Notes under the pieces: generated by a model | Seen by the model: the letters and a program-made list of their open reading frames with translations, nothing else | What the model was told of the DNA's origin: nothing | Database searches by the model: none | Made by a program: the position numbers and the translations under genes | Shown: positions 40,292-56,974 of the stretch, one piece after another | Layout of the letters: the number at the start of each line of letters is the position of its first letter | Position numbering within the stretch: position 1 is the first letter of the stretch | Source of the DNA: Candidatus Krumholzibacteriia bacterium | GTDB lineage: Bacteria > Krumholzibacteriota > Krumholzibacteriia > JAJRXK01 | Length of the DNA: 64,000 nucleotides | Direction of reading: 5' to 3' | Assembly (NCBI GenBank): GCA_041484665.1 | Contig: JBGPIA010000001.1 | Location: forward strand, 480,001 to 544,000

Positions 40292-41488
40292 ATGCGTTGG
40301 GTCTCGGTGGTCAGTGATCGCCCGGAGCTCGCGGATTCGTTGGCGGAGGCCACCGCCGCCATTGCGAGGCAGCTGGGACCCGGCTCCCCCGACCTGCTGG
40401 TGGTGTTCGTGAGCCAGGAGCACCTGTTCCACTACGGCCAGGTGGTCCCGACCCTGCAGAAGAGCCTCGCGCCGGGCACGCTGATCGGCTGCTCGGCAGG
40501 CGGCGTGATCGGCGGCGGGCGGGAACTGGAGCGGACCCCGGGGATCACGCTGACGGCTGCAATGCTTCCCGGCGTGCAGCGGCGCCTGGTCCACCTCACG
40601 AATGAGGACCTGCCTCCCCTCGACGGCAGCCCGCGCGCCTGGGTCGATACGCTGGGGGTCGAACCCGGGGACAACCCCAGCTTCATCGTGCTGGCGGACC
40701 CGTTCTCGTGCGACGCGCGCACGTTGCTGTCGGGGCTCGACTTCGCCTACGGCCAGGCGGTGAAGGTCGGCGGGTTGGCCAGTGGAGCGCAATCTCCGGG
40801 TGGCAACGCGTTGTTCGCCGACCAGCGCACGCTACGCCAGGGGGCGCTGGTACTGGTGCTGACGGGCGACGTCGTCGTGGACGCCATCGTGGCGCAGGGG
40901 TGCAAGGCCATCGGCAGGTTGGGCCGCGTGACGCGCTGCGAGGGCCATGTGCTCCACGAGCTCGACGGTCGCCCGCCGCTCCTGGTGCTCCAGGAGACCT
41001 ACGAGCAGCTCGACGGACGTGACCAGGAGCTGGCGCGCACTGCTCTGTTCCTGGGGCTCTCGATGGACGAGTTGCGCGAGCACCCCGGGCCGGGCGACTT
41101 CCTGATCCGCAACGTCCTTGGCCTCGACCCGCAGACCGGCACGATCGCCGTCGCCGCCGAGTTGCGCCAGGGGCAGACCGTCCAGTTCCACGTGCGTGAC
41201 GGCGTGGCGGCGGCGCAAGACCTCAACGCCGTTCTCGGCCGCTATCGCGAGCGGCTACCCGATGTCAGTCCCCACGGTGCGCTGCTCTTCTCGTGCCTGG
41301 GGCGTGGCGAGCATCTTTACGGGGAGCCCGACCACGACAGCCGCGCGTTCGCACGTCGCATCGGCGACGTCGCCCTGGGCGGATTCTTCTGCAACGGCGA
41401 GATCGGACCCGTGGGAGAGACGACCTACCTGCACGGCTACACGAGCGCATTCGGTCTCTTCCGGCCGCGTTCGGGATCGCGCGCCTAG
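40292..41488 (+). CDS. Stand-alone FIST N/C sensory protein
   Basis: AGGAGG RBS; LIGCSAGGVIG, VGGLASG, VAQGC, FLIRNVLG, LLFSCLGRG, GFFCNGEIGP, LHGYT. Confidence 0.93.
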   Translation: MRWVSVVSDRPELADSLAEATAAIARQLGPGSPDLLVVFVSQEHLFHYGQVVPTLQKSLAPGTLIGCSAGGVIGGGRELERTPGITLTAAMLPGVQRRLVHLTNEDLPPLDGSPRAWVDTLGVEPGDNPSFIVLADPFSCDARTLLSGLDFAYGQAVKVGGLASGAQSPGGNALFADQRTLRQGALVLVLTGDVVVDAIVAQGCKAIGRLGRVTRCEGHVLHELDGRPPLLVLQETYEQLDGRDQELARTALFLGLSMDELREHPGPGDFLIRNVLGLDPQTGTIAVAAELRQGQTVQFHVRDGVAAAQDLNAVLGRYRERLPDVSPHGALLFSCLGRGEHLYGEPDHDSRAFARRIGDVALGGFFCNGEIGPVGETTYLHGYTSAFGLFRPRSGSRA

Positions 41489-41551
41489 CAGCGCGTGGTC
41501 CGCAGCGCGTGGTCCGCAGCGCGTGGTCCGCAGCGCGTGGTCCGCAGCGCG
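41488..41551. repeat. Perfect 14-bp tandem repeat, about 4.5 copies
   Basis: GCAGCGCGTGGTCC at 41488, 41502, 41516 and 41530, plus partial GCAGCGCG at 41544. Confidence 0.95.
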
Positions 41552-41592
41552 CGTGGCAGCCCCCGACCGTCGAAGCGACGGGCAGCCCGCCG

Positions 41593-43798: not shown

Positions 43799-44212
43799 AT
43801 GAGCGCCGAGGCACCCAGCGTGTTGATCGTGGAGGACGACCCGGGAATCCGCACCCTGCTGTCGCGCCTGGTCGCACGCCTGGGACTGACCTGCCGCGTC
43901 GCGCAAGACGGCGAGGAGGCGCTGCTCGCCGTCGCCGAAGGCACGCCCGATCTGATCATCCTCGATCTCATGATGCCCGGGATGAACGGGTTCCAGTTCC
44001 TGCGCGCCTACCGGGAGGGCGGCGCGCTGGAGACGCCGGTCATCGTGGTGACGGCCAAGGACGACGCGTTCGACCAGTTCTGGGCCCACAAGCTCGGTGT
44101 ACGCCACTTCCTGGTGAAGCCCTTCGCACCGCAGGCCATCCTCGGGGCGATCGAGGAGGCGCTGAGCAGCACCCCCCACGACGCCAACAGCCCGCCCTCC
44201 TCCCCACCGTGA
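43799..44212 (+). CDS. Single-domain response regulator (receiver)
   Basis: VLIVEDD, DLIILDLMMPGMNG, VVTAK, FLVKPF. Confidence 0.95.
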   Translation: MSAEAPSVLIVEDDPGIRTLLSRLVARLGLTCRVAQDGEEALLAVAEGTPDLIILDLMMPGMNGFQFLRAYREGGALETPVIVVTAKDDAFDQFWAHKLGVRHFLVKPFAPQAILGAIEEALSSTPHDANSPPSSPP

Positions 44213-47200
44213 TCCCCACGGTCTGGTTGCTGGCGGCGGCGGGCGTGCTGCTGCTGGGCCAGATCCTCCTGATCGCCGTTCTAATCGCGCGCAACGGGCT
44301 CGTAGAGTGGAGGCTGCGCCGCCGCTGCGGACACTCGACGCTGCTGGCCTCCCTCTGCGAAAGCCTCGACGCGGGTGGAAGCGCCCACGTACGCGCCGAG
44401 CTCTCGCGCCGCGAGCTACTCGTCGACGTCTCGGCGTTGGAGGCCTGGCTCGACCTGGTGGCGTCGCGGGGCGAGGATCCGGCGCTGCTCCCCCCGGAGG
44501 AGTACGAGCGCGTCGGGCTCGTGGATCGCTATCTCCGCCAGCTCCAGCGAGCGCGCGGGTGGTCGGCACGCGCCGCCGCCGCCGAGGTCCTGGGATGGAC
44601 GCACAGCCCCCGCGCCGTGCCCGCGTTGCTGGAGGCGGCGCTCGACGAGCGCGGCGAGGAGCCGGCCGTGCGCGCGGTGGCGCTGCGCGCGCTGGGCCGC
44701 ATCCGGCACCCACGCGCGGTCGAGCCGTTGATCAGCGCGCTCGCCAGCAGCGATACCTGGTTCCCGCCGCGCGCGGCCGAGATGCTCGCCCGCATCGGGG
44801 CGCCGGCGGTGGAGCCCCTCGCGCGTCTGGTGGGGGACGCTTGCGCCCCCCTCACCACGCGCCGCTGGGCGGCCCAGGTGTTGGGTGAGGTGCGCGACCG
44901 CCGCGCGCTGCACGCGTTGCACGCAGCGCTCGGCGACCTGGACGCCGAGCTGCGGGCCAAGGCGGCGCGGGCCCTGGGCAACCTGGGACAGGAGCGCTCG
45001 ATCGGGCCCCTGCTGGACCGCTTGCTGGCCGACCCGATCCCGTTCGTGCGCTCCTGCGTCGCGCGCGCGCTGGGGCAGCTCTCCACCGGACGCACGGTGG
45101 GGTTCCTGGTGGAGGCCCTGGCCGATCCCGAGTGGTGGGTGCGCCTGCGCGCGGTCGAGGCGCTGGCGCAACTGGGAGAGCCAGCGCGGCAGGTGCTGCA
45201 CGGAGCGCTGCACGACAGCGACCCGCAAGTAGCCCGCGAGGCGGGGCGCGCGCTGGAGGGGCTGGGCGTCGTCGCCGAGCTGCTGGACAGCCTGCGGCGC
45301 GAGGGCTACTCGCCGGAGCTCACCGAGCTGTTGGTGGACATCGGCAGGGCGGGCAACATCGACGCGCTGCTGGACGCCCTCGACTCCGACGACGTGGAGT
45401 TCCTCACCTCGGTCACGCGCATCATCGCCCGCGTGGGCGACGCGCGCGCCGCCCCGGGCCTGGTGCGGCTCCTTCGCACGCGCTCGGAGCCGGGCTTGCA
45501 GGCTCGCGTGATCGACGCGCTGCGGCGGGCCGGGGCCGCGGACCTGGTCGGGGAGATCCTCCCGCTGCTTGCCTCGCCCAACGAGTGGGTCCGCAAGACC
45601 AGCCTCGACTACCTCGAGCGGTTCGCGGACACCGACGTGCTGCCGCGGGTGGCTCCGCTCCTGCAGGATCCCAACCCATGGGCGCGCGAGGCAGCGCTCA
45701 AGCTCATGGAGCGCCTGCCACCGCCGCCCGCGCTGGCGTGGCAGATCGAGTCCGCGCTCGGGGACCCTTACGTCTTCGTGCGCGCGCAGGCCGTGCGCAC
45801 CCTCTGCGCGTGCGACCGTCTCGAGCTGCTGTTCCAAGATGGCACCCCGGTGATCGAGGAGGCCCCCGAGGTGCGCGAAGCGGCGCTGCAGGGCCTCGCC
45901 CGCTCGGCCAGCCCAAAGGTGCTGCCCGTCGCGCTGGCGCTGTTTCCCAAGGCCGACACGGACGCCCTCGACCAGCTGACGCAGCTCGTGCGCGAGGCGG
46001 CGCGGCGCGACCCGGTGGTGAGCCTCGTGCAGGTGCGCGAGGGCGGCGACGTCGCCCATCGCTGGGCGCTGGCGACCATCGCCCCCGAGCTCGGCGACGC
46101 CCCCCTGCCCGTGGCGCTGCTCGCGTTGGCGGGCGACGAGGATCCGCGCGTGCGCGCCGCGGCCGTCGCATCGCTGCTGCGGCGGCCTGGGGCGGGCGAG
46201 ACGGAGCGTGCCTGTGTCGTGGACGCCCTGGCCGATCCGCACCCGCTGGTGGCGCGCGGGGCCCTGCGTGCGCTGGCTCTGCTGCCTCGAGGCGAGCTTG
46301 ACCGTCATCTGCGCCGTGGCCTCAGCCACGCCGAGGCCTCGGTGGCGGTCGATGCCGCGCTCGCCATTGCGCTGCGCCTCGGGCGGCAGAGCGTGCGGGC
46401 GCTGATGGCCGCCGTCAGCGACCGGCGCCCGTCGGTGCGGCTGGCGGCGCTGATCGGGCTGGTCTACCAGGGCGAGCGTACCGCGCTACCGAGCTGGCTG
46501 GCGGAGCTGCGCGCGCCGGCCAGCCTGCAGTTGCTGCACCGCTGGCGCGAGACGCAGCATCCGCTGCTGTCGCGCATCCTGGGCACCAGCCGCGAGGCCC
46601 GCGCGACCCTCGAGCAGCGCCTGCTCACGGCACGCTCGCCGCAGGAGGCCGAGGACCAGCTGCTGCGGGAGCTGGAGAGCAACCCCGACGCTGAGATCCG
46701 CAAGCTGGCAGCCGAGGGTCTCTCCACGCTGCAATCGCGCCGGGCCGTCAGCCTGATGCTGCCCACCAGCCAGCGCGATCCCGCCCCGGAGGTGCGCATC
46801 GCTGCGCTGCGGTTCCTCGTGCGCGAGAACGCCTTCGGTCACCGCCGCCGCTATCTCGAGACGGGGCTGCGCGACCCTGTGGCGGCCGTGCAAGTGGCCG
46901 CGGCGCACCTCAGCGTGGTGCTGCCCGACCACGAGGCGATTCCGCTGTTGGTGGAGCATCTGGAGACGCGGCTGCCGGCGCTGCGCGCCGCGCTCACCGA
47001 CATGCTCGCCGGCCGCGCCGAGGAGGGCGTCGAGGCGATCCTCGACGCGGTGATGGGCCGGCCCATGACCGTCGAGTTGATGCTCGGCCTGGTGGCGGTG
47101 CTGCGCCAGGTACCGTTGCCGCTGTCCGACGAGGTGCTGGAGGTCCTGCTGCGACATCGCTGGGCTGAGGTGCGCGCCGAGGCGCTCGCCGCGCTCATCC

Positions 47201-47610
47201 CGCGCCAGGGCGGCGCGGGCGCCGACTGGGTGATCGAGGCCCTGGGCGACCCGGCGGTGCGCGTGCGCAAGGAAGCCGTGCGCCTGTCCACCGCCGCGGG
47301 CGTCGATTTCGGCGGCCACGAGCGCGCGCGAGAGGAGACGTTGCTGCAGGCACTGGACGATCCCGCCCCCGCGGTACGCGCCCGGACGGCGCTGGCGGTG
47401 GCACGCCTGGGCCTTGCGCGCGCGCGACGAGCGCTGACCGCCATGGAGCGGGACCCCGACGCGCGCGTCGCGCGGGCGGCCCGCCGGGCACTCGCGGCGC
47501 TGGCGGCCGCGGTGGCCGGGACAGCGCCGGCGGCGGCGCCCCGGTCGTCGGTGTCTGCGGCGGCGCCGCCCGCGGTGACCGCGCCGGAGCAGGAGGTGAC
47601 GGCGCCATGA
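44209..47610 (+). CDS. Membrane-anchored HEAT/PBS-lyase repeat protein (~1130 aa)
   Basis: GTGA overlap with the receiver stop; N-terminal TM helix; many L.D.D..VR..A..ALG repeats; ATGA overlap with the GT2 gene. Confidence 0.92.
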   Translation: MIPTVWLLAAAGVLLLGQILLIAVLIARNGLVEWRLRRRCGHSTLLASLCESLDAGGSAHVRAELSRRELLVDVSALEAWLDLVASRGEDPALLPPEEYERVGLVDRYLRQLQRARGWSARAAAAEVLGWTHSPRAVPALLEAALDERGEEPAVRAVALRALGRIRHPRAVEPLISALASSDTWFPPRAAEMLARIGAPAVEPLARLVGDACAPLTTRRWAAQVLGEVRDRRALHALHAALGDLDAELRAKAARALGNLGQERSIGPLLDRLLADPIPFVRSCVARALGQLSTGRTVGFLVEALADPEWWVRLRAVEALAQLGEPARQVLHGALHDSDPQVAREAGRALEGLGVVAELLDSLRREGYSPELTELLVDIGRAGNIDALLDALDSDDVEFLTSVTRIIARVGDARAAPGLVRLLRTRSEPGLQARVIDALRRAGAADLVGEILPLLASPNEWVRKTSLDYLERFADTDVLPRVAPLLQDPNPWAREAALKLMERLPPPPALAWQIESALGDPYVFVRAQAVRTLCACDRLELLFQDGTPVIEEAPEVREAALQGLARSASPKVLPVALALFPKADTDALDQLTQLVREAARRDPVVSLVQVREGGDVAHRWALATIAPELGDAPLPVALLALAGDEDPRVRAAAVASLLRRPGAGETERACVVDALADPHPLVARGALRALALLPRGELDRHLRRGLSHAEASVAVDAALAIALRLGRQSVRALMAAVSDRRPSVRLAALIGLVYQGERTALPSWLAELRAPASLQLLHRWRETQHPLLSRILGTSREARATLEQRLLTARSPQEAEDQLLRELESNPDAEIRKLAAEGLSTLQSRRAVSLMLPTSQRDPAPEVRIAALRFLVRENAFGHRRRYLETGLRDPVAAVQVAAAHLSVVLPDHEAIPLLVEHLETRLPALRAALTDMLAGRAEEGVEAILDAVMGRPMTVELMLGLVAVLRQVPLPLSDEVLEVLLRHRWAEVRAEALAALIPRQGGAGADWVIEALGDPAVRVRKEAVRLSTAAGVDFGGHERAREETLLQALDDPAPAVRARTALAVARLGLARARRALTAMERDPDARVARAARRALAALAAAVAGTAPAAAPRSSVSAAAPPAVTAPEQEVTAP

Positions 47611-50057
47611 CCTGGCAGCTGTGGCTGGTCCGTAGCATCGAGCTGTTAGTCGTCACCTACACGGTCACCTACGCGCTGGCGAACATCGTCCTGATGGTCG
47701 TGGGCTTCAATCCGGTGCGCGAACAGGTGCGCGGCATCGCCTTCGAAGACCTGGACATGCTGGACGGCAACGGCAACGTGCCGTCGGTCGCCGTGCTCGT
47801 GCCCGCCTACAACGAATCGCTGATGATCGTCGAGGCCGTGCGGGCTCTGACCGAGCTCGACTATCCCCAGATCGAAATCATCATCGCCAACGACGGCTCG
47901 ACCGACGACACGCTGCAGCGCCTGCGCGAGGCCTTCGCGATGCGGCGGCGCGACGTGTCGATGCGCAGCGAGCTCCAGACAGCACAGGTGCGGGGCGTGT
48001 ACGAGGCCACCTACCCGTTCCCGAAGACCGTGCTGCGCCTGCTGGTCGTGGACAAGGAGAACGGCGGCCGCGCGGATGCGCTGAACGCCGCGCTCGACGC
48101 CGCCGTATCGCCCTACTTCATCACCGTGGACGCCGATTCGATCCTCGACGCGCAGGCCCTCAAGCAGGTGATGCGCATCTTCCAGGACCGGCCCGACGTC
48201 CTGGCCGCGGGCGGGCAGGTCGGCATCGTCAACGACTGCACCGTGGAGCGGGGCCGGATCGTGCGCAAGGCGCTGACGCACCGCTACGTGCCCCTTTGCC
48301 AGACGCTGGAATACCTGCGCTCGTTCACCACCATGCGCACCGGATGGACCCGGCTGGACAGCCTGGTGATCCTCAGCGGCGCGTTCCTGGTCATGTCGCG
48401 GGCTGCGGCGATCCGCGTCGGCGGATTCCTCACCGGCCGCGTGCGCTACCGTCTGCTTGACGAGTACGTCGGCCCCGAGGGGGCCACCATTTGCGAGGAC
48501 ATGGAGATGATCGTGCGACTGCACCGCTACGAGCGGGAGCACGGCCGCAAAGCCCGCATCGTCCACACGCCCGTGCCCGTATGCTGGACGGAGGTGCCCG
48601 CCACCCTGTCCAGCCTGGCCAAGCAGCGGCGCCGTTGGCATCGCGGCCTCATCGAGATCCTGCTGCACCACCGCCGCATGGTGCTCAACCCCTGTTACGG
48701 CTCCGTCGGGCTGTTCGCGCTGCCCTACTTCGTCCTCTTCGAGCTGGCCGGCCCTTACGTCGAGGCGGCCGGCTACGTGCTACTGCCCCTGTTTGCGCTG
48801 TGGGGCATCCTCGACCCGCTGCGCTGCATCCTGATCACCGCCGTCGCGCTGGCGTTCGGCGTGCTGCAATCGATGGTGGCGGTGTTGTGCGCCACGTGGC
48901 TCGAGCCGGTCAGCCCGGCCGGCACCCAGGTGCGGTCGCTCACCGGGATGGACCGCTGGCGCGACCGGCTGCTGTTGTTGGCAGCGTGCTTCCTGGGCGA
49001 GCTGGGCTTCCGCCAGCTCACTGTCTGGTGGCGGCTGCGCGGCACGTGGGACTTCCTGCGCGGCCGCACCGACTGGGACAAGTTCGAGCGGGCCGGCTTC
49101 CGCCAGGCGGCAGGAGCGGCGGGGGCAGCGTTGTTGGCCGCGTGGGTGCTGGCAGCGCCGCACCCAACGCGTGCGCAGCAGGCAAGCCCGGTGGTGCTGG
49201 TCGGGGCGAACGTCGCGACACCCGCAAAGGCCGGCGCGCCGATACCCGCAAAGGCCGGCGCGGCAATAACTGCGCAAGCCAGCGCAGCGGCGCGTACGGA
49301 GACCACCCCCGCGGCAGCCGGCGCCGAGCAGCCGCGCCGCCCGGACCACGCGCTCCAGGAGCGCGAGGTCACCGTCAACGGCGGCAGTGAGCATCGGATC
49401 AGTCTGGGCACCGGATGGTGGATGGAGGCCACCTCACGTTGGAAGTGGGACGACGGGCAGGTGCGTTGGGTGGGCCTCTCACGAATCGAGCGCCGAGGCC
49501 TCGCCGATGAGGGCCTGCTGGCCGGGATCGCGCTGAAGCCGTGGAAGCGCGCCGGATTCGCCGTCGAGCTGCGCGCCGCGCCGGGCGCAGAGGTCTCGCC
49601 GCGCTGGTTCCTGTCGGCGGAGGCGGAGGCCGCCTTCCACGAGCGCATCAGCAGCACGACGATCGCGCGCCTCTCCGCCTACCGCGACGTGACGGTGCTC
49701 GATCTGGCCACCGGTACGGTGCTCTACCTGCGCAAGGAGCGATGGCTCGCAACGCGTGCGCACCTGTTCAGTACATGGTTCGACAGCGGCGCACGCGCTG
49801 CGCTCTTGGGCGTGTCGGGCGTCTTCTCCACGCCGCTGGGCGCGAGCGAGCTGCGCCTGCAGGCGAGCTACGGCGGGGAAAGCTACCTCGCGGGCTACCA
49901 GGCGGAGGTGCGGGAGCTGCGCGCCTGGTCGCTGGGCGGGTCGCTGCGACGGCCGGTCGGCGACCGCTGGACGCTGGAGCTCGGAGCGGCCTACCGCCGG
50001 CCCGAGCTGGGCGCGCGGGAGATCGACGTGAGCGGTGGCGTGCGATGCCGCTGGTAA
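47607..50057 (+). CDS. Processive GT2 glycosyltransferase (PgaC/IcaA-like) fused to a YaiO-like outer-membrane beta-barrel
   Basis: VPAYNE, NDGSTD, DKENGG, VDAD, CEDME, QRRRW, TM helices, end motif WDKFERAGF; then a hydrophobic segment, an Ala/Pro linker and ~235 aa of amphipathic beta strands ending in W. Confidence 0.88.
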   Translation: MTWQLWLVRSIELLVVTYTVTYALANIVLMVVGFNPVREQVRGIAFEDLDMLDGNGNVPSVAVLVPAYNESLMIVEAVRALTELDYPQIEIIIANDGSTDDTLQRLREAFAMRRRDVSMRSELQTAQVRGVYEATYPFPKTVLRLLVVDKENGGRADALNAALDAAVSPYFITVDADSILDAQALKQVMRIFQDRPDVLAAGGQVGIVNDCTVERGRIVRKALTHRYVPLCQTLEYLRSFTTMRTGWTRLDSLVILSGAFLVMSRAAAIRVGGFLTGRVRYRLLDEYVGPEGATICEDMEMIVRLHRYEREHGRKARIVHTPVPVCWTEVPATLSSLAKQRRRWHRGLIEILLHHRRMVLNPCYGSVGLFALPYFVLFELAGPYVEAAGYVLLPLFALWGILDPLRCILITAVALAFGVLQSMVAVLCATWLEPVSPAGTQVRSLTGMDRWRDRLLLLAACFLGELGFRQLTVWWRLRGTWDFLRGRTDWDKFERAGFRQAAGAAGAALLAAWVLAAPHPTRAQQASPVVLVGANVATPAKAGAPIPAKAGAAITAQASAAARTETTPAAAGAEQPRRPDHALQEREVTVNGGSEHRISLGTGWWMEATSRWKWDDGQVRWVGLSRIERRGLADEGLLAGIALKPWKRAGFAVELRAAPGAEVSPRWFLSAEAEAAFHERISSTTIARLSAYRDVTVLDLATGTVLYLRKERWLATRAHLFSTWFDSGARAALLGVSGVFSTPLGASELRLQASYGGESYLAGYQAEVRELRAWSLGGSLRRPVGDRWTLELGAAYRRPELGAREIDVSGGVRCRW

Positions 50058-50088: not shown

Positions 50089-50442
50089 CTAGGCCTTGGC
50101 CTGTCCCACGAAGCTGCGCAGCGCCGCGTCCACGTCGTCGTACTCCTCGAACAGGTCGAGGATCCGGGTGACGTAGGCCACCTTGCGATTGCGCTCGCTG
50201 AGGCCGGCCAGCTTGAGCAGGGCCCCTTCGCGGCTGCAGGTGCTGTAGGCGCTCACCAGCGTGCCGAGGCCGATGCTGGCGATCAGCGGTACGCCACTCA
50301 GGTCGAAGACGAAGTGCCGCTCCCCCGTGCCGAGCCACTGGCGGAGGTCCGTGCGCAAGCGCTCGTTGGAAGGATCGCCCGTCCAGTTGCCCGTGACGCG
50401 CACGATCCGCACCCCGCCCGATTGGTCGCTCGTATAGATCAT
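50089..50442 (-). CDS. STAS-domain anti-sigma factor antagonist
   Basis: AAGGA RBS; VRVTG, FVFDLSGVPLIASIGLGTLV, LKLAGL, TRILDLFE...AL.SF. Confidence 0.92.
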   Translation of the reverse strand: MIYTSDQSGGVRIVRVTGNWTGDPSNERLRTDLRQWLGTGERHFVFDLSGVPLIASIGLGTLVSAYSTCSREGALLKLAGLSERNRKVAYVTRILDLFEEYDDVDAALRSFVGQAKA

Positions 50443-50727
50443 GGCCGTCCTTTCGGGGATGGGCCCTCGGGTCTTTGGACTGGATTCTAGGGGAAAGCGG
50501 GGGGGGGGCGCCAGCGGGGCGGTGGGTCGGGGCGGCGGGTCCCGCCGGCCAAAGCGGTTCCGGCCAACCGGGGGTGCCGCGGTCGCCGGGCGGGAACCGG
50601 TTGCGCCGCGGAGGCTGCCCAACCCGGTCCGATCGAGGGCGCACACCGGGCACGGGGCGGATACGCCCCGGCGCCCGCAACCGGCTGCCGCTTTGAGGCG
50701 GCGGTGGCCGCGCGGTGACGCACCGGG

Positions 50728-53287: not shown

Positions 53288-54586
53288 TCAAACCGGCGCG
53301 CCGGGCTCCCAGCGCAGATCCAGCGGCCCGAACACCTTCGCCGGAAAGACGCACGGAACCACTCCCAGCAGGAACTGCCGGCGCTTGTATTCATGATGGT
53401 TGCGGTAGTCGCGGCTGTGCACCGTGGCCAGGAAGCTCTCCATGGTGAAGATTTGCAGCTCGACCCCGAACAGATATGGCTGCGCTCCCTCCCCGTTGTC
53501 ACCCGGATAAAGGATGTCCACGTCCTCCTTGAAGACGTGGAAACCTTCGGCGCTGAACCGGTTGAGCTGGGAGCGGTCCTGGGGATGGCGGAACGTGTCC
53601 ACCTGGTTGCGGAAGGAAAATGGTCCGCCCAGGACCTGGTGGAGGAGGTCGGCCAGCCGGTAGACCTCCGGCTCGCTGCGCACGATGAACTTCGCGCCAA
53701 GGATGTCGGTGATATCCACGGGATTGTTGATCCCCTTGCGCAGCATCTTGGACAGGATCGAAGCGGAGCGGTGGCGCTCCATCCCCGGGTAGCGCTGCCG
53801 CTCGTCCACTTCGTAGTCGTGGCGCCCGGTGTCGTAGTCGTACCCGGCGCTCTCCTTCTTGAAACGCGTATCGAAGTGGTAGATCTCCAGATCGTAGGTG
53901 CCGCCGGGCAGATCGCGCACGATGCGCTGCACGTGGAAGTGCCAGCACTCGACGCCGTTGCGCAGCGCGCGGACGTCTTCCACCAGGCGCAGATCTCCGC
54001 CGGAGAGGTCGTAGCAGAGCTCGTTGTCGTGCTGCTCGACGACGTGGCGCCATAGCTCGCGGTCCAGCAGCTCCAGCAGGTAGCGCCGGTGCCGCGGGCC
54101 GTCCTGGATGACGCGCGTGTGGTCGATCTGGATGAGCAGCTTGGCCAGGTAGAGCTTGCGCTGCACCTCGAAAACGCGGCGGTGGTCGCGGGTGGCGAAC
54201 AGCATCTCCACCAGGCGGCGCAGGTCGTTGGACGCCTCGACCTCCGGATCGGGCCGGCAGTGGTCGCGGTATTCGGGCGGCAAGAGCGTCACCAGATCGC
54301 GCACGTAAGCGCTGGCGTCGTGGAGGTAGCTGGCCAGGATGCGCTCGTTGACCTCCGGCGGATGCTCCCGTCCCAGCGGATGGAGCAGGCGGTTGAGCAT
54401 CTGCTGGTAACGCCAGCCGTGTCGGATGTACTCGCGGAATAGCCGGGCGTACGAGCGCAGGGCCGCGCGGTCGTTGCGTGGCAGGTCGGGGTCCAGGAAT
54501 GGGTGCGCGGAGTAGTCGGGTGCGGTTGCAGCGACCGGCTGCGGCGGCCGCACGGGTGCGGAAGCCGTCGTGATGCGGTCGGCCAT
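53288..54586 (-). CDS. Protein with a divergent RelA/SpoT-type nucleotidyltransferase domain
   Basis: RHRSASILSKMLRK, ITDILGAKFIV, NRFS..GF, VELQIFT, HHEYK, in the same order as the RelA/SpoT synthetase motifs; GGAGG RBS. Confidence 0.7.
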   Translation of the reverse strand: MADRITTASAPVRPPQPVAATAPDYSAHPFLDPDLPRNDRAALRSYARLFREYIRHGWRYQQMLNRLLHPLGREHPPEVNERILASYLHDASAYVRDLVTLLPPEYRDHCRPDPEVEASNDLRRLVEMLFATRDHRRVFEVQRKLYLAKLLIQIDHTRVIQDGPRHRRYLLELLDRELWRHVVEQHDNELCYDLSGGDLRLVEDVRALRNGVECWHFHVQRIVRDLPGGTYDLEIYHFDTRFKKESAGYDYDTGRHDYEVDERQRYPGMERHRSASILSKMLRKGINNPVDITDILGAKFIVRSEPEVYRLADLLHQVLGGPFSFRNQVDTFRHPQDRSQLNRFSAEGFHVFKEDVDILYPGDNGEGAQPYLFGVELQIFTMESFLATVHSRDYRNHHEYKRRQFLLGVVPCVFPAKVFGPLDLRWEPGAPV

Positions 54587-54643: not shown

Positions 54644-56974
54644 CTAGCGGGTCAACACCAGACGGCGGGAGCTGGTTCCGTCGGGGGTCACCAGTGCATA
54701 GAAATAGGCACCGCTGCCGACCGCAAGTCCATTCTGGTCGCGGCCGTCCCAGTGGGCCTGATGCTCGCCAGCCGGGAGCTCTCCGTCCACGAGCACCCGC
54801 ACCAGTCGGCCCTGCGGGTCGTAGAGCGAAAGCCGCACCCGGGCTGGGTGGGGGAGGTCGAAGAGAATGGTGGTGCTGGGGTTGAACGGATTGGGGAAGT
54901 TCTGGCCCAGCGCCGGCCGCTGCCGGGGAGCCGGCCCGCCGCCCGCGACGGCATAGACCGTGGCGCTGGCCAGGGCGTCGCCGCCCTGGACTGGCACGAG
55001 CAGCTGGTAGGCGTAGGTGCGACCGGGCTGGACGGCGCGGTCGAGCGCGCTGCCACTGCCGCCGCGATCGTCGATGGGCAGCGCCAGCGGCACCAGGCGC
55101 GCAACATCGCCCACGGCCTGCACCACGGCGCGCTGGACCCGGACCGCCGAGGCAGCGAGGTCGCCGGACACGCGCCACTCCAGCCGGATGCCGTCCGATT
55201 GCGGCTGTGCCGTGAAGCTCTCCAGGGCAACCGGAAGGGGCAGTGCGCTGCCCCGGCCCTCGATCAGCCGGTAGAAGTGATCCGCCGACACGCCCGAGAA
55301 CACCTCTTCCGCCCCGCACGGCCAGCGCACTCGCACCTCCGTGATCGCGGTCACCTGACCCAGCCCGAACTCCACATCCAGGCTGTTCTGGCTGAGGTAG
55401 CTGCTGCCGGCCTCGATCTCGCGCATCTGCGTCGTGCCGCCGGCCGTGAGGTAGACGCGCGCACCGATCGCGCAGCGGTTGCAGCCCAGGCCCGGCTGGT
55501 GCTCGCCGCCGCCGATGAGCTTGAATTCAGCCCAGTGGTTGCCGCTGTCTTGATCGTTGCGGTAGAGCTGGCAATGCCCTTCGTAGAGCGCGGCCCACGG
55601 AGCGACGAGCGGATCGAAGAAGCTGTTGTTCGTGACAGCCACGTCGAGATCGCCGTCGCGGTCGAAGTCGGCGGTGGCGAGTCCTCGCCCCATGTTGGTG
55701 TCGGCAAACGCGGCCGCGAGGCTCACGTCGGTGAAGGTCCAGTCGGGCGCCCCGCTGTTCAGGTAGACCTTGTTGGGGATGCCGGTCGGCTGGTTGTTTG
55801 TATAACCGTTGACGAAGCCGCTGGCGAAGATCAGGTCGAGGTCACCGTCGTTGTCGAGGTCGCAGAAGTCCGCCCCCCAGCAGTTGAGCCCCCACTTGAC
55901 GCCCTTCTCCACGGCGCGATTGGTGAACCGCCACCCGCCGCCGACCTGGGGGCCCTGGTTCTCGTAGAAAGCGTTGCCGTTGTAGATCGTGGTGTAGATG
56001 TCGAGGTAACCGTCGTTGTTGTAATCGCCGACCGCCACGCCCATGTCCATGCTGTACGGGTCGGCGCTGGAGGCACCGCCGGCGACCTTGTACGTTCTGG
56101 CCACCTCCACGAACGTGAACCCCGCAGCCCGCCCCTGGTTCTCGAAGAGATAGTTGGGCCCGAAGTCGTTGGTGACGTAGATGTCCAAGTCGCCGTCGTT
56201 GTCGAAGTCGAGGAATACGGGCTGGAACCCGAATTCCTGGTGGCCGACGGGCAGGTCGCCCGTGCGCTCGAAGAAGTCGCCCGAGAGGTTATGGAACAGC
56301 TGGTCGGGTTGGTCGAGGTAGTTCGCGACGTAGAGGTCGACGTAGCCGTCCTGGTCGTAGTCGCCGAACGCCACGCCCATCGACTCCGGCTGGATCGGCT
56401 GGCCGGCCGGCAGCAGCGGGTCCAGCCCGAAGTGCACCGATTGCTCCGACAAGACGTTGCCTCCGCCAACGAAGAACTGGGGTTCGGCGAAGAAGTTCGC
56501 GATGGCGAGGTCGAGCGTCCCGTCGTTGTTCACGTCAGCCAGCGCCAGCCCGTCGGCGACGCGACTGGTGGCCACGCCCCAGGCCTGCGAGACGTCGGTG
56601 AACGTCCCATCGCCGTTGTTGAGCATCAGGTAGTTGTGCGCCGGCGTGCCCGCCCGATTCTTGATGCTCCCGTTGACGACGATCATGTCCGGCCAGCCAT
56701 CGTCGTTGACATCGGCCCAGGCCACGCCGGGCCCGAAGGCGTCCGGCCATTCCTGCGGGTCGCAGGGGTCGGGGGAGCAGGGCAGGAGGAATCCGCGGGA
56801 GTCATGGGTCAGCGTCATGGGCTGGCCCTGGCCGTCCTTCAAGGCGCTAGCGGAGATCTCACTGAAATGGAGCGATGCCGCAGCCGGTGGCGACGCCAGA
56901 AGAAAGCAGACCACCACGCTGAGCACGGGCGCCACTCGAGCGGCGCGCGGGGCGAGCAACTTCAGCATGTGCAC
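54644..56974 (-). CDS. CRTAC1-like FG-GAP repeat protein with ASPIC/UnbV and FlgD-Ig domains
   Basis: Signal peptide; repeated D.NNDG..D; AIGARV...QMREIEAGSSYLSQNS..VEFGLG...VRWP; QNFPNPFNPST tail. Confidence 0.94.
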   Translation of the reverse strand: MHMLKLLAPRAARVAPVLSVVVCFLLASPPAAASLHFSEISASALKDGQGQPMTLTHDSRGFLLPCSPDPCDPQEWPDAFGPGVAWADVNDDGWPDMIVVNGSIKNRAGTPAHNYLMLNNGDGTFTDVSQAWGVATSRVADGLALADVNNDGTLDLAIANFFAEPQFFVGGGNVLSEQSVHFGLDPLLPAGQPIQPESMGVAFGDYDQDGYVDLYVANYLDQPDQLFHNLSGDFFERTGDLPVGHQEFGFQPVFLDFDNDGDLDIYVTNDFGPNYLFENQGRAAGFTFVEVARTYKVAGGASSADPYSMDMGVAVGDYNNDGYLDIYTTIYNGNAFYENQGPQVGGGWRFTNRAVEKGVKWGLNCWGADFCDLDNDGDLDLIFASGFVNGYTNNQPTGIPNKVYLNSGAPDWTFTDVSLAAAFADTNMGRGLATADFDRDGDLDVAVTNNSFFDPLVAPWAALYEGHCQLYRNDQDSGNHWAEFKLIGGGEHQPGLGCNRCAIGARVYLTAGGTTQMREIEAGSSYLSQNSLDVEFGLGQVTAITEVRVRWPCGAEEVFSGVSADHFYRLIEGRGSALPLPVALESFTAQPQSDGIRLEWRVSGDLAASAVRVQRAVVQAVGDVARLVPLALPIDDRGGSGSALDRAVQPGRTYAYQLLVPVQGGDALASATVYAVAGGGPAPRQRPALGQNFPNPFNPSTTILFDLPHPARVRLSLYDPQGRLVRVLVDGELPAGEHQAHWDGRDQNGLAVGSGAYFYALVTPDGTSSRRLVLTR

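Follow-up and report, generated by a model that had tools for sequence, protein, structure and literature searches.

A processive GT2 synthase and a predicted YaiO-type outer-membrane barrel share one conserved reading frame in a Candidatus Krumholzibacteriia genome

The fused gene and its integrity

The window, as we call the whole stretch of DNA analysed here, comprises 64,000 nucleotides of contig JBGPIA010000001.1 from a Candidatus Krumholzibacteriia bacterium (positions 480,001 to 544,000). Within it, an open reading frame of 816 codons (47607-50057, +) runs free of stops through a processive glycosyltransferase family 2 (GT2) synthase, a signal-like segment, a linker and a β-barrel (Table 1). 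An initial annotation, made from the sequence alone, had described the synthase as continuing past its terminal motif WDKFERAGF without a stop codon. This description holds: the motif occupies residues 490-498 (49074-49100), and the frame stays open to 50057. The segment that follows, RQAAGAAGAALLAAWVLAAPHPTRA, covers residues 499-523 (49101-49175), and the QQ behind it starts at 49176. The duplication reported in the linker is likewise present, 19 bases being repeated exactly at 49220 and 49244 with a period of 24. The GC content at third codon positions (GC3) drops in the linker (0.72 versus about 0.9).

Table 1. Features of the fused gene and of the two genes that precede it
Feature	Coordinates	Strand	Basis
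Fused gene: GT2 synthase, putative internal signal peptide and YaiO barrel, 816 residues	47607..50057	+	stop-free frame, junction-bridging contigs, fused relatives
Processive membrane GT2 synthase, residues 1-498, D,D,D,QRRRW	47607..49100	+	PF13641/PF00535/PF13632, fold
Gating-loop motif W490-DKFE-R495-AGF	49074..49100	+	R495 invariance, XlHAS1 equivalence
Putative internal Sec-type signal peptide, residues 499-523, predicted cut TRA↓QQ	49101..49175	+	passes home-made rule
Ala/Pro-rich disordered linker, residues 524-582, 24-base-period duplication at 49220-49262	49176..49352	+	low pLDDT, exact repeat
Predicted YaiO-family outer-membrane β-barrel, residues 583-816, 14 strands, C-terminal Trp	49353..50057	+	TIGR04390, model
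Stand-alone receiver (REC) protein, 137 residues, first gene of the predicted operon	43799..44212	+	response-regulator models, residues ~6-125
HEAT-repeat protein, 1133 residues, hydrophobic N-terminus	44209..47610	+	PF13646, 13 stretches, E 5e-77

We confirm that the gene is real, conserved and intact across the junction. The junction (49074-49175) is bridged by one contig in each of four runs out of four (X4-X7), with 0 differing letters and 0 gaps; the indel or stop near 49100 that would have marked an assembly error is absent from all of them. The comparison used contigs rather than raw reads, from four of 24 runs listed, none flagged as a possible source of the assembly. All four are sediment metagenomes that may stem from one campaign, and the whole 1401-base stretch lies in no single contig. 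A 151-base contig of run X5 (depth 2.3) joined 49338 to 49559 through foreign letters with 20-letter sides and was taken to come from another organism.

The synthase portion

The D,D,D,QRRRW set expected of a complete processive GT2 enzyme is in place, with NDGS at residue 95, DAD at 175, CED at 296 and QRRRW at 340, and a pattern search found all four motifs in 19 of the 21 full-length fused members of the family. Residues 1-498 match the Pfam models PF13641, PF00535 and PF13632. The best NCBIfam model is PgaC_IcaA (TIGR03937), whose curated cut-off is not reached (106.3 versus 422.3 bits), and a sequence search against solved structures returned short GT2 matches only.

Foldseek ranked hyaluronan, chitin and cellulose synthases at the top for the synthase model, which superposes on the hyaluronan synthase 8snc with Z 26.7 and a root-mean-square deviation (rmsd) of 3.5 over 396 aligned residues; its residues 4-483 match residues 50-486 of a chain of 8smm, also a hyaluronan synthase, with Z 24.0. 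The membrane helices, interface helices and gating loop of the hyaluronan synthase (HAS)/BcsA type are all found in the model. Helix 451-484 ends shortly before W490..R495, a hydrophobic helix starts near residue 502, and R495 is invariant across 94 alignment rows. In XlHAS1, according to an excerpt of PMC11750622, the last interface helix ends at T485, the cytosolic gating loop carries W491..R496, and transmembrane helix 5 (TMH5) begins at Y503. The W..R spacing and its position after the last interface helix are thus the same in both proteins.

The barrel portion

TIGR04390, the YaiO barrel model, matches residues 598-800 with 35.5 bits in the whole protein and 38.6 bits in the C-terminal part, above its cut-off of 32; two relatives gave 38.3 bits (G003) and 29.8 bits (G002), the latter below the cut-off. 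Pfam PF19413 (YaiO) matched neither the window's barrel nor those of P0057 and P0068, and to judge from these profiles the YaiO family is divergent here. The barrel has no TPR domain. Fused-family barrels are 30-67% identical to it, and the terminal residue is W or F in 22 of the 23 fused members.

AlphaFold2 was run on an alignment of 94 rows (A5), 12 of them with a barrel, and gave a mean predicted local distance difference test (pLDDT) score of 87.2. An earlier alignment (A4) had set 14 distant barrels in GT2 columns, and these rows were dropped before folding; a fold from a 4-row alignment was poor (mean pLDDT 46.9) and was discarded. The GT2 portion is modelled confidently, helix 502-515 with low confidence, and residues 515-578 are disordered (pLDDT below 50). 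Fourteen strands then follow over residues 583-814, with pLDDT mostly 85-96. The barrel model (residues 583-816) resembles OmpG (Z 16.8, rmsd 3.1, 213 aligned), 4y25 (Z 14.9) and PelB (Z 14.2). The C-terminal part, which the initial annotation had recognised as a YaiO-type barrel from its strand pattern, is therefore predicted to fold as one by both profile and model, PF19413 aside.

Fused and split relatives

A search with the GT2 portion alone (residues 40-500), which admitted lengths of 448-1428 and so left split forms eligible, gave 376 matches among 8000 candidates scored, of which 120 were listed. Among these, the 20 nearest after the window's own cluster are 56-74% identical, 751-789 residues long and all fused. 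The remaining 99 are 46-50% identical and 501-532 residues long, which is the unfused length. The same fusion, which the initial annotation had suggested looking for in related genomes, is thus present in 20 full-length relatives among the 120 matches listed; instead of being split, the close homologues are fused throughout, and split forms are only distant. Our family counts rest on 23 fused sequences, two of them fragments; the 78-residue P0012, which lacks the barrel, was left out.

Both halves trace a single group. The fused rows form one group in the GT2 tree (11 of 51 rows; Shimodaira-Hasegawa-like approximate likelihood ratio test, SH-aLRT, 100), as do the fused barrels in the barrel tree (23 of 40 rows; SH-aLRT 99). 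Among the matches listed, no split member falls within the fused clade, and no reversion was seen. Across 208 genomes of the window's class the fused form was found in 3, each from a different genus of a single family. In 12 others the GT2 end is matched and no barrel follows in frame, 5 of these 12 having a separate barrel match beside it. Of the fused relatives, two from the window's family are labelled Candidatus Krumholzibacteriota.

Split loci suggest how the fusion may have come about. In L114, L115, L117, L121, L168 and L169 the GT2 stop lies 13 residues past the motif, and the barrel has its own ATG in another frame, overlaps the GT2 end and begins with a hydrophobic N-terminus. With genes overlapping in this way, one frameshift or deletion would be enough to produce a fusion. 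These six loci are cousins of the fused clade and not its direct ancestor. In L118 a TPR-bearing barrel lies just downstream of the GT2 gene. On this comparison the fusion most likely arose once, when a frameshift or deletion joined a pair of overlapping genes into one, and one old origin would be the simplest reading.

Related arrangements occur elsewhere. In three loci of other phyla (L155:7424-, L171:7415-, L156:7395-) the end of the GT2 gene overlaps the gene of another exported protein, one that carries an N-terminal signal of its own, so an overlap that favours fusion is general in this GT2 family. In the fragment P0016, which belongs to a different GT2 subfamily, WGxMxRRGF continues into a signal-like segment ending VSA↓QT, the barrel lying outside the fragment; this is possibly a further, independent fusion.

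The putative internal signal peptide and a proposed model for processing

The junction sequences of the family hardly align, and they share a plan: the basic end of the motif, 8-14 hydrophobic residues, a proline and a small-x-small pattern. The initial annotation had placed an internal signal peptide here, and in the window the segment passes a rule for signal peptidase I sites. In its fixed form the rule accepted 12 of 12 junctions found later, where shuffling each linker would give 1.71; in the earlier set 8 of 11 passed, with 1.19 expected from shuffling. Over the whole family, 20 of 23 junctions pass the strict form, the window's included. Because the segment follows the cytosolic gating loop, it would start in the cytosol and point outward, carrying the barrel to the side where signal peptidase I works. 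This N-in, C-out orientation is deduced from the gating-loop equivalence, helix 502-515 itself being a low-confidence part of the model, and the basic residues of the gating-loop motif may also act as the signal's n-region.

From motif to barrel the 23 members have 21-87 residues (median 29), the hydrophobic segment included, and 18 of them have 35 or fewer; from predicted site to barrel, 17 of the 22 members with a site have 9 residues or fewer, and some only 1-2. The periplasm is about 20 nm wide, although this may not be the width in this phylum. Nine residues or fewer cannot span it while the chain is anchored in the inner membrane.

We regard it as probable that the whole sequence of events is that of a polyprotein: insertion of the synthase, export of its tail, a signal peptidase I cut at TRA↓QQ, insertion of the barrel by the β-barrel assembly machinery (BAM), and polysaccharide export, with the cleavage deduced from sequence patterns. 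One gene, kept across the whole clade, encodes synthase, signal-like segment and barrel. From this gene, its conservation and the folds of its parts we infer the remaining steps. By model and comparison, the synthase would end in the cytosolic gating loop, and the next segment would lie N-in, C-out at the place of TMH5 in hyaluronan synthase. The C-terminal ~290 residues would be threaded by Sec into the periplasm, and signal peptidase I would cut between residues 523 and 524, leaving the signal helix as the synthase's last helix. BAM would then place the freed barrel in the outer membrane by way of its terminal aromatic residue; in the usual barrel route, as an excerpt of PMC13067283 describes it, signal peptidase I cuts at AXA and BAM reads a C-terminal signal. 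Finally, the barrel would export the synthase's polysaccharide, and the receiver and HEAT-repeat proteins encoded upstream would control the process. The genome encodes BamA and has two genes for signal peptidase I. The polyprotein, one of two options that the initial annotation had offered, is thus supported by conservation, by topology and by the hold-out test.

Several points weigh against this reading. The rule is home-made, not SignalP, and was written on the first 12 junctions before it was fixed; since the hold-out members are kin, the P values from shuffling are too favourable. It misses P0008 altogether, accepts P0003 and P0007 only once the proline term is dropped, gives 6 hits within GT2 bodies, spread over 4 of the 12 examined, and recognises genuine N-terminal barrel signals in 4 of 13 cases in its strict form and 10 of 13 in its loose form. 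The window's own h-region is rich in Ala and weak, with a best 11-residue hydropathy of 2.3, and its disordered linker exceeds that of every other member among the 23, with 87 residues between motif and barrel, about 60 of them after the site. The trees that define the clade were quick LG+G4 runs.

Alternative explanations

The long linker bears on the other option of the initial annotation, an uncut trans-envelope tether, in which the segment is a permanent anchor, the linker spans the periplasm and the pore is held above the synthase. If seven disordered residues are predicted at 2-3 nm (PMC5736177, in excerpt), the 60 residues of the window could reach about 20 nm, so that the tether would be possible by length for this protein, and several separate barrels carry a TPR bridge that the fused barrels lack. 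Most of the family is nevertheless too short for it, as the spacing in 17 of 22 members and in 18 of 23 from the motif indicates, and a cleavage-site pattern that went unused would not be kept. We therefore consider the tether very improbable. Cleavage by another protease, periplasmic or intramembrane, acting in the linker or the helix, appears to us just as improbable. P0008 has no site, so not every member fits the rule, and the fused synthase AcsAB is described in an excerpt of PMC4877109 just as proteolytically processed; but the small-x-small pattern after a proline behind a short hydrophobic core, seen in 20 of 23 members, is that of signal peptidase I, and several members leave almost no linker on which another enzyme could act.

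In another arrangement, translation of the barrel precursor would begin separately at an in-frame start within the gene, and the full-length protein would be a by-product, either trimmed or degraded. A Met in the gating motif (WGxMER) of 11 of 23 members would turn the segment into a textbook N-terminal signal peptide, and the window has AGGAG at 49112-49116 with TTG at 49131 and 49134. However, Phe stands at that place in the other 12, the window included, Met is common at the same place in unfused outgroups, and the TTG codons of the window, lying within the h-region, would provide no n-region. In G003 the stretch from motif to site contains none of the codons ATG, GTG and TTG. Since the synthase has no stop of its own, the fused product must be made anyway, and we give the internal start little credence. 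Finally, the frame is almost certainly neither an assembly artefact nor the product of a recent read-through into a barrel that is now decaying. Metagenome assemblies are the source of every member, and the GC3 of the linker is low, but four runs agree, 20 diverged full-length relatives among the matches listed show the fusion with none split in the clade, and the barrels are intact at their 30-67% identity. Against these alternatives, the polyprotein cut by signal peptidase I is the reading we prefer.

Genomic neighbourhood and a second fusion

The receiver, the HEAT-repeat protein and the fusion form a coupled trio, with the stop/start overlaps GTGA (receiver/HEAT) and ATGA (HEAT/synthase). 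Of 24 loci tested, 22 yielded a HEAT homologue, and in all 4 fused loci with DNA it is the immediate upstream neighbour. Fused and split members of this GT2 family alike are accompanied by the HEAT-repeat protein, whose gene precedes that of the synthase in most loci and follows it in the three Myxococcota-type loci tested. In relatives of family f3 (L025:13933-16283, L027:13691-14935), TPR proteins precede a receiver-HEAT-GT2 trio in which no barrel was detected. No deacetylase or acyltransferase gene was identified adjoining the fusion gene. Behind it, on the opposite strand, lie a small gene (50089-50646, -) that we take to be anti-sigma-antagonist-like, a gene for a 432-residue protein (53288-54586, -) and one for a large FG-GAP-like secreted protein (54644-56974, -); their order is repeated in G002. 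Further upstream, at 41488-41560, a short duplicated stretch places AARGPQRVVRSAWS twice in overlapping reading frames between two convergent genes.

The same genome holds a second fusion, C5:218484-220418 (-) (L195:2985-4919), in which a multi-helix membrane protein is in frame with a YaiO barrel (TIGR04390, 62 bits). At its junction, basic residues and then a hydrophobic core lead to ARA↓TD, and the junction passes the loose rule only; a GT2 gene (221374-223578) lies upstream. By frame length, the two halves are one open frame in G003, G005, G007, G129, G133 and G150, and they are split in other relatives. Because its barrel falls outside the fused clade in the barrel tree, this fusion looks independent.

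In a broader reading, both cases would be instances of a recurrent bacterial route, not described so far, in which barrels reach the outer membrane as C-terminal cargo of multi-pass inner-membrane proteins; this genome would use it twice, in unrelated inner-membrane proteins. The gating loop would serve as the n-region, and the leftover helix would pin that loop in the manner of TMH5 in hyaluronan synthase. In the boldest form of this reading, cleavage would be late, and BAM would fold a leashed pore above the synthase, replacing the TPR bridge. We put this forward as a speculation that is, on balance, unlikely to hold.

Significance and comparison with known systems

In synthase-dependent polysaccharide export the parts for the two membranes normally come from separate genes and are targeted separately; here one gene would supply both. 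If the polyprotein model is correct, Sec would handle two tasks on one chain, inserting its multi-pass part and afterwards exporting its barrel precursor of ~290 residues, and synthesis of the two parts would be fixed at 1:1. The poorly studied YaiO family would thereby be linked to GT2 export by a closer bond than gene neighbourhood provides, and a one-gene construct is at hand for finding the polymer. Most fused proteins are labelled as glycosyltransferase only, so annotation tools miss such pores.

The E. coli K-12 cluster yaiS-yaiP-yaiX-yaiO likewise brings a GT2 enzyme and a YaiO barrel together, in separate genes there and in a single frame here, where receiver and HEAT-repeat genes precede the fusion. 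The initial annotation was right that yaiP and yaiO are separate genes and wrong to place them side by side, as yaiX lies between them. Its remark that no such case had been described fares similarly: no polyprotein of a synthase and an outer-membrane barrel was found in the open literature searched, whose coverage is limited and leaves most subscription journals outside, whereas the principle is known from AcsAB of Gluconacetobacter (Komagataeibacter) hansenii, a fused synthase that is proteolytically processed into two proteins (PMC4877109, in excerpt).

Like the window's gene, AcsAB joins a processive GT2 synthase to a partner in one polypeptide. AcsB is a periplasmic subunit with an inner-membrane anchor, and a separate gene encodes the pore AcsC, whereas the part released here is predicted to be the outer-membrane barrel itself. 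The window's synthase is also PgaC/HAS-like and, unlike AcsAB, has no PilZ match. FbcH of Bradyrhizobium japonicum is reportedly one gene for two proteins, cytochromes b and c1, split via an internal signal sequence; both products stay in the inner membrane, neither is a BAM substrate, and the proteins are unrelated to those of the window. With PgaC/IcaA and hyaluronan synthase the window's synthase has the GT2 fold and the gating loop in common. Among export barrels, PgaA, BcsC and PelB differ from the window's in their TPR extension, while the PelB barrel itself is similar to it.

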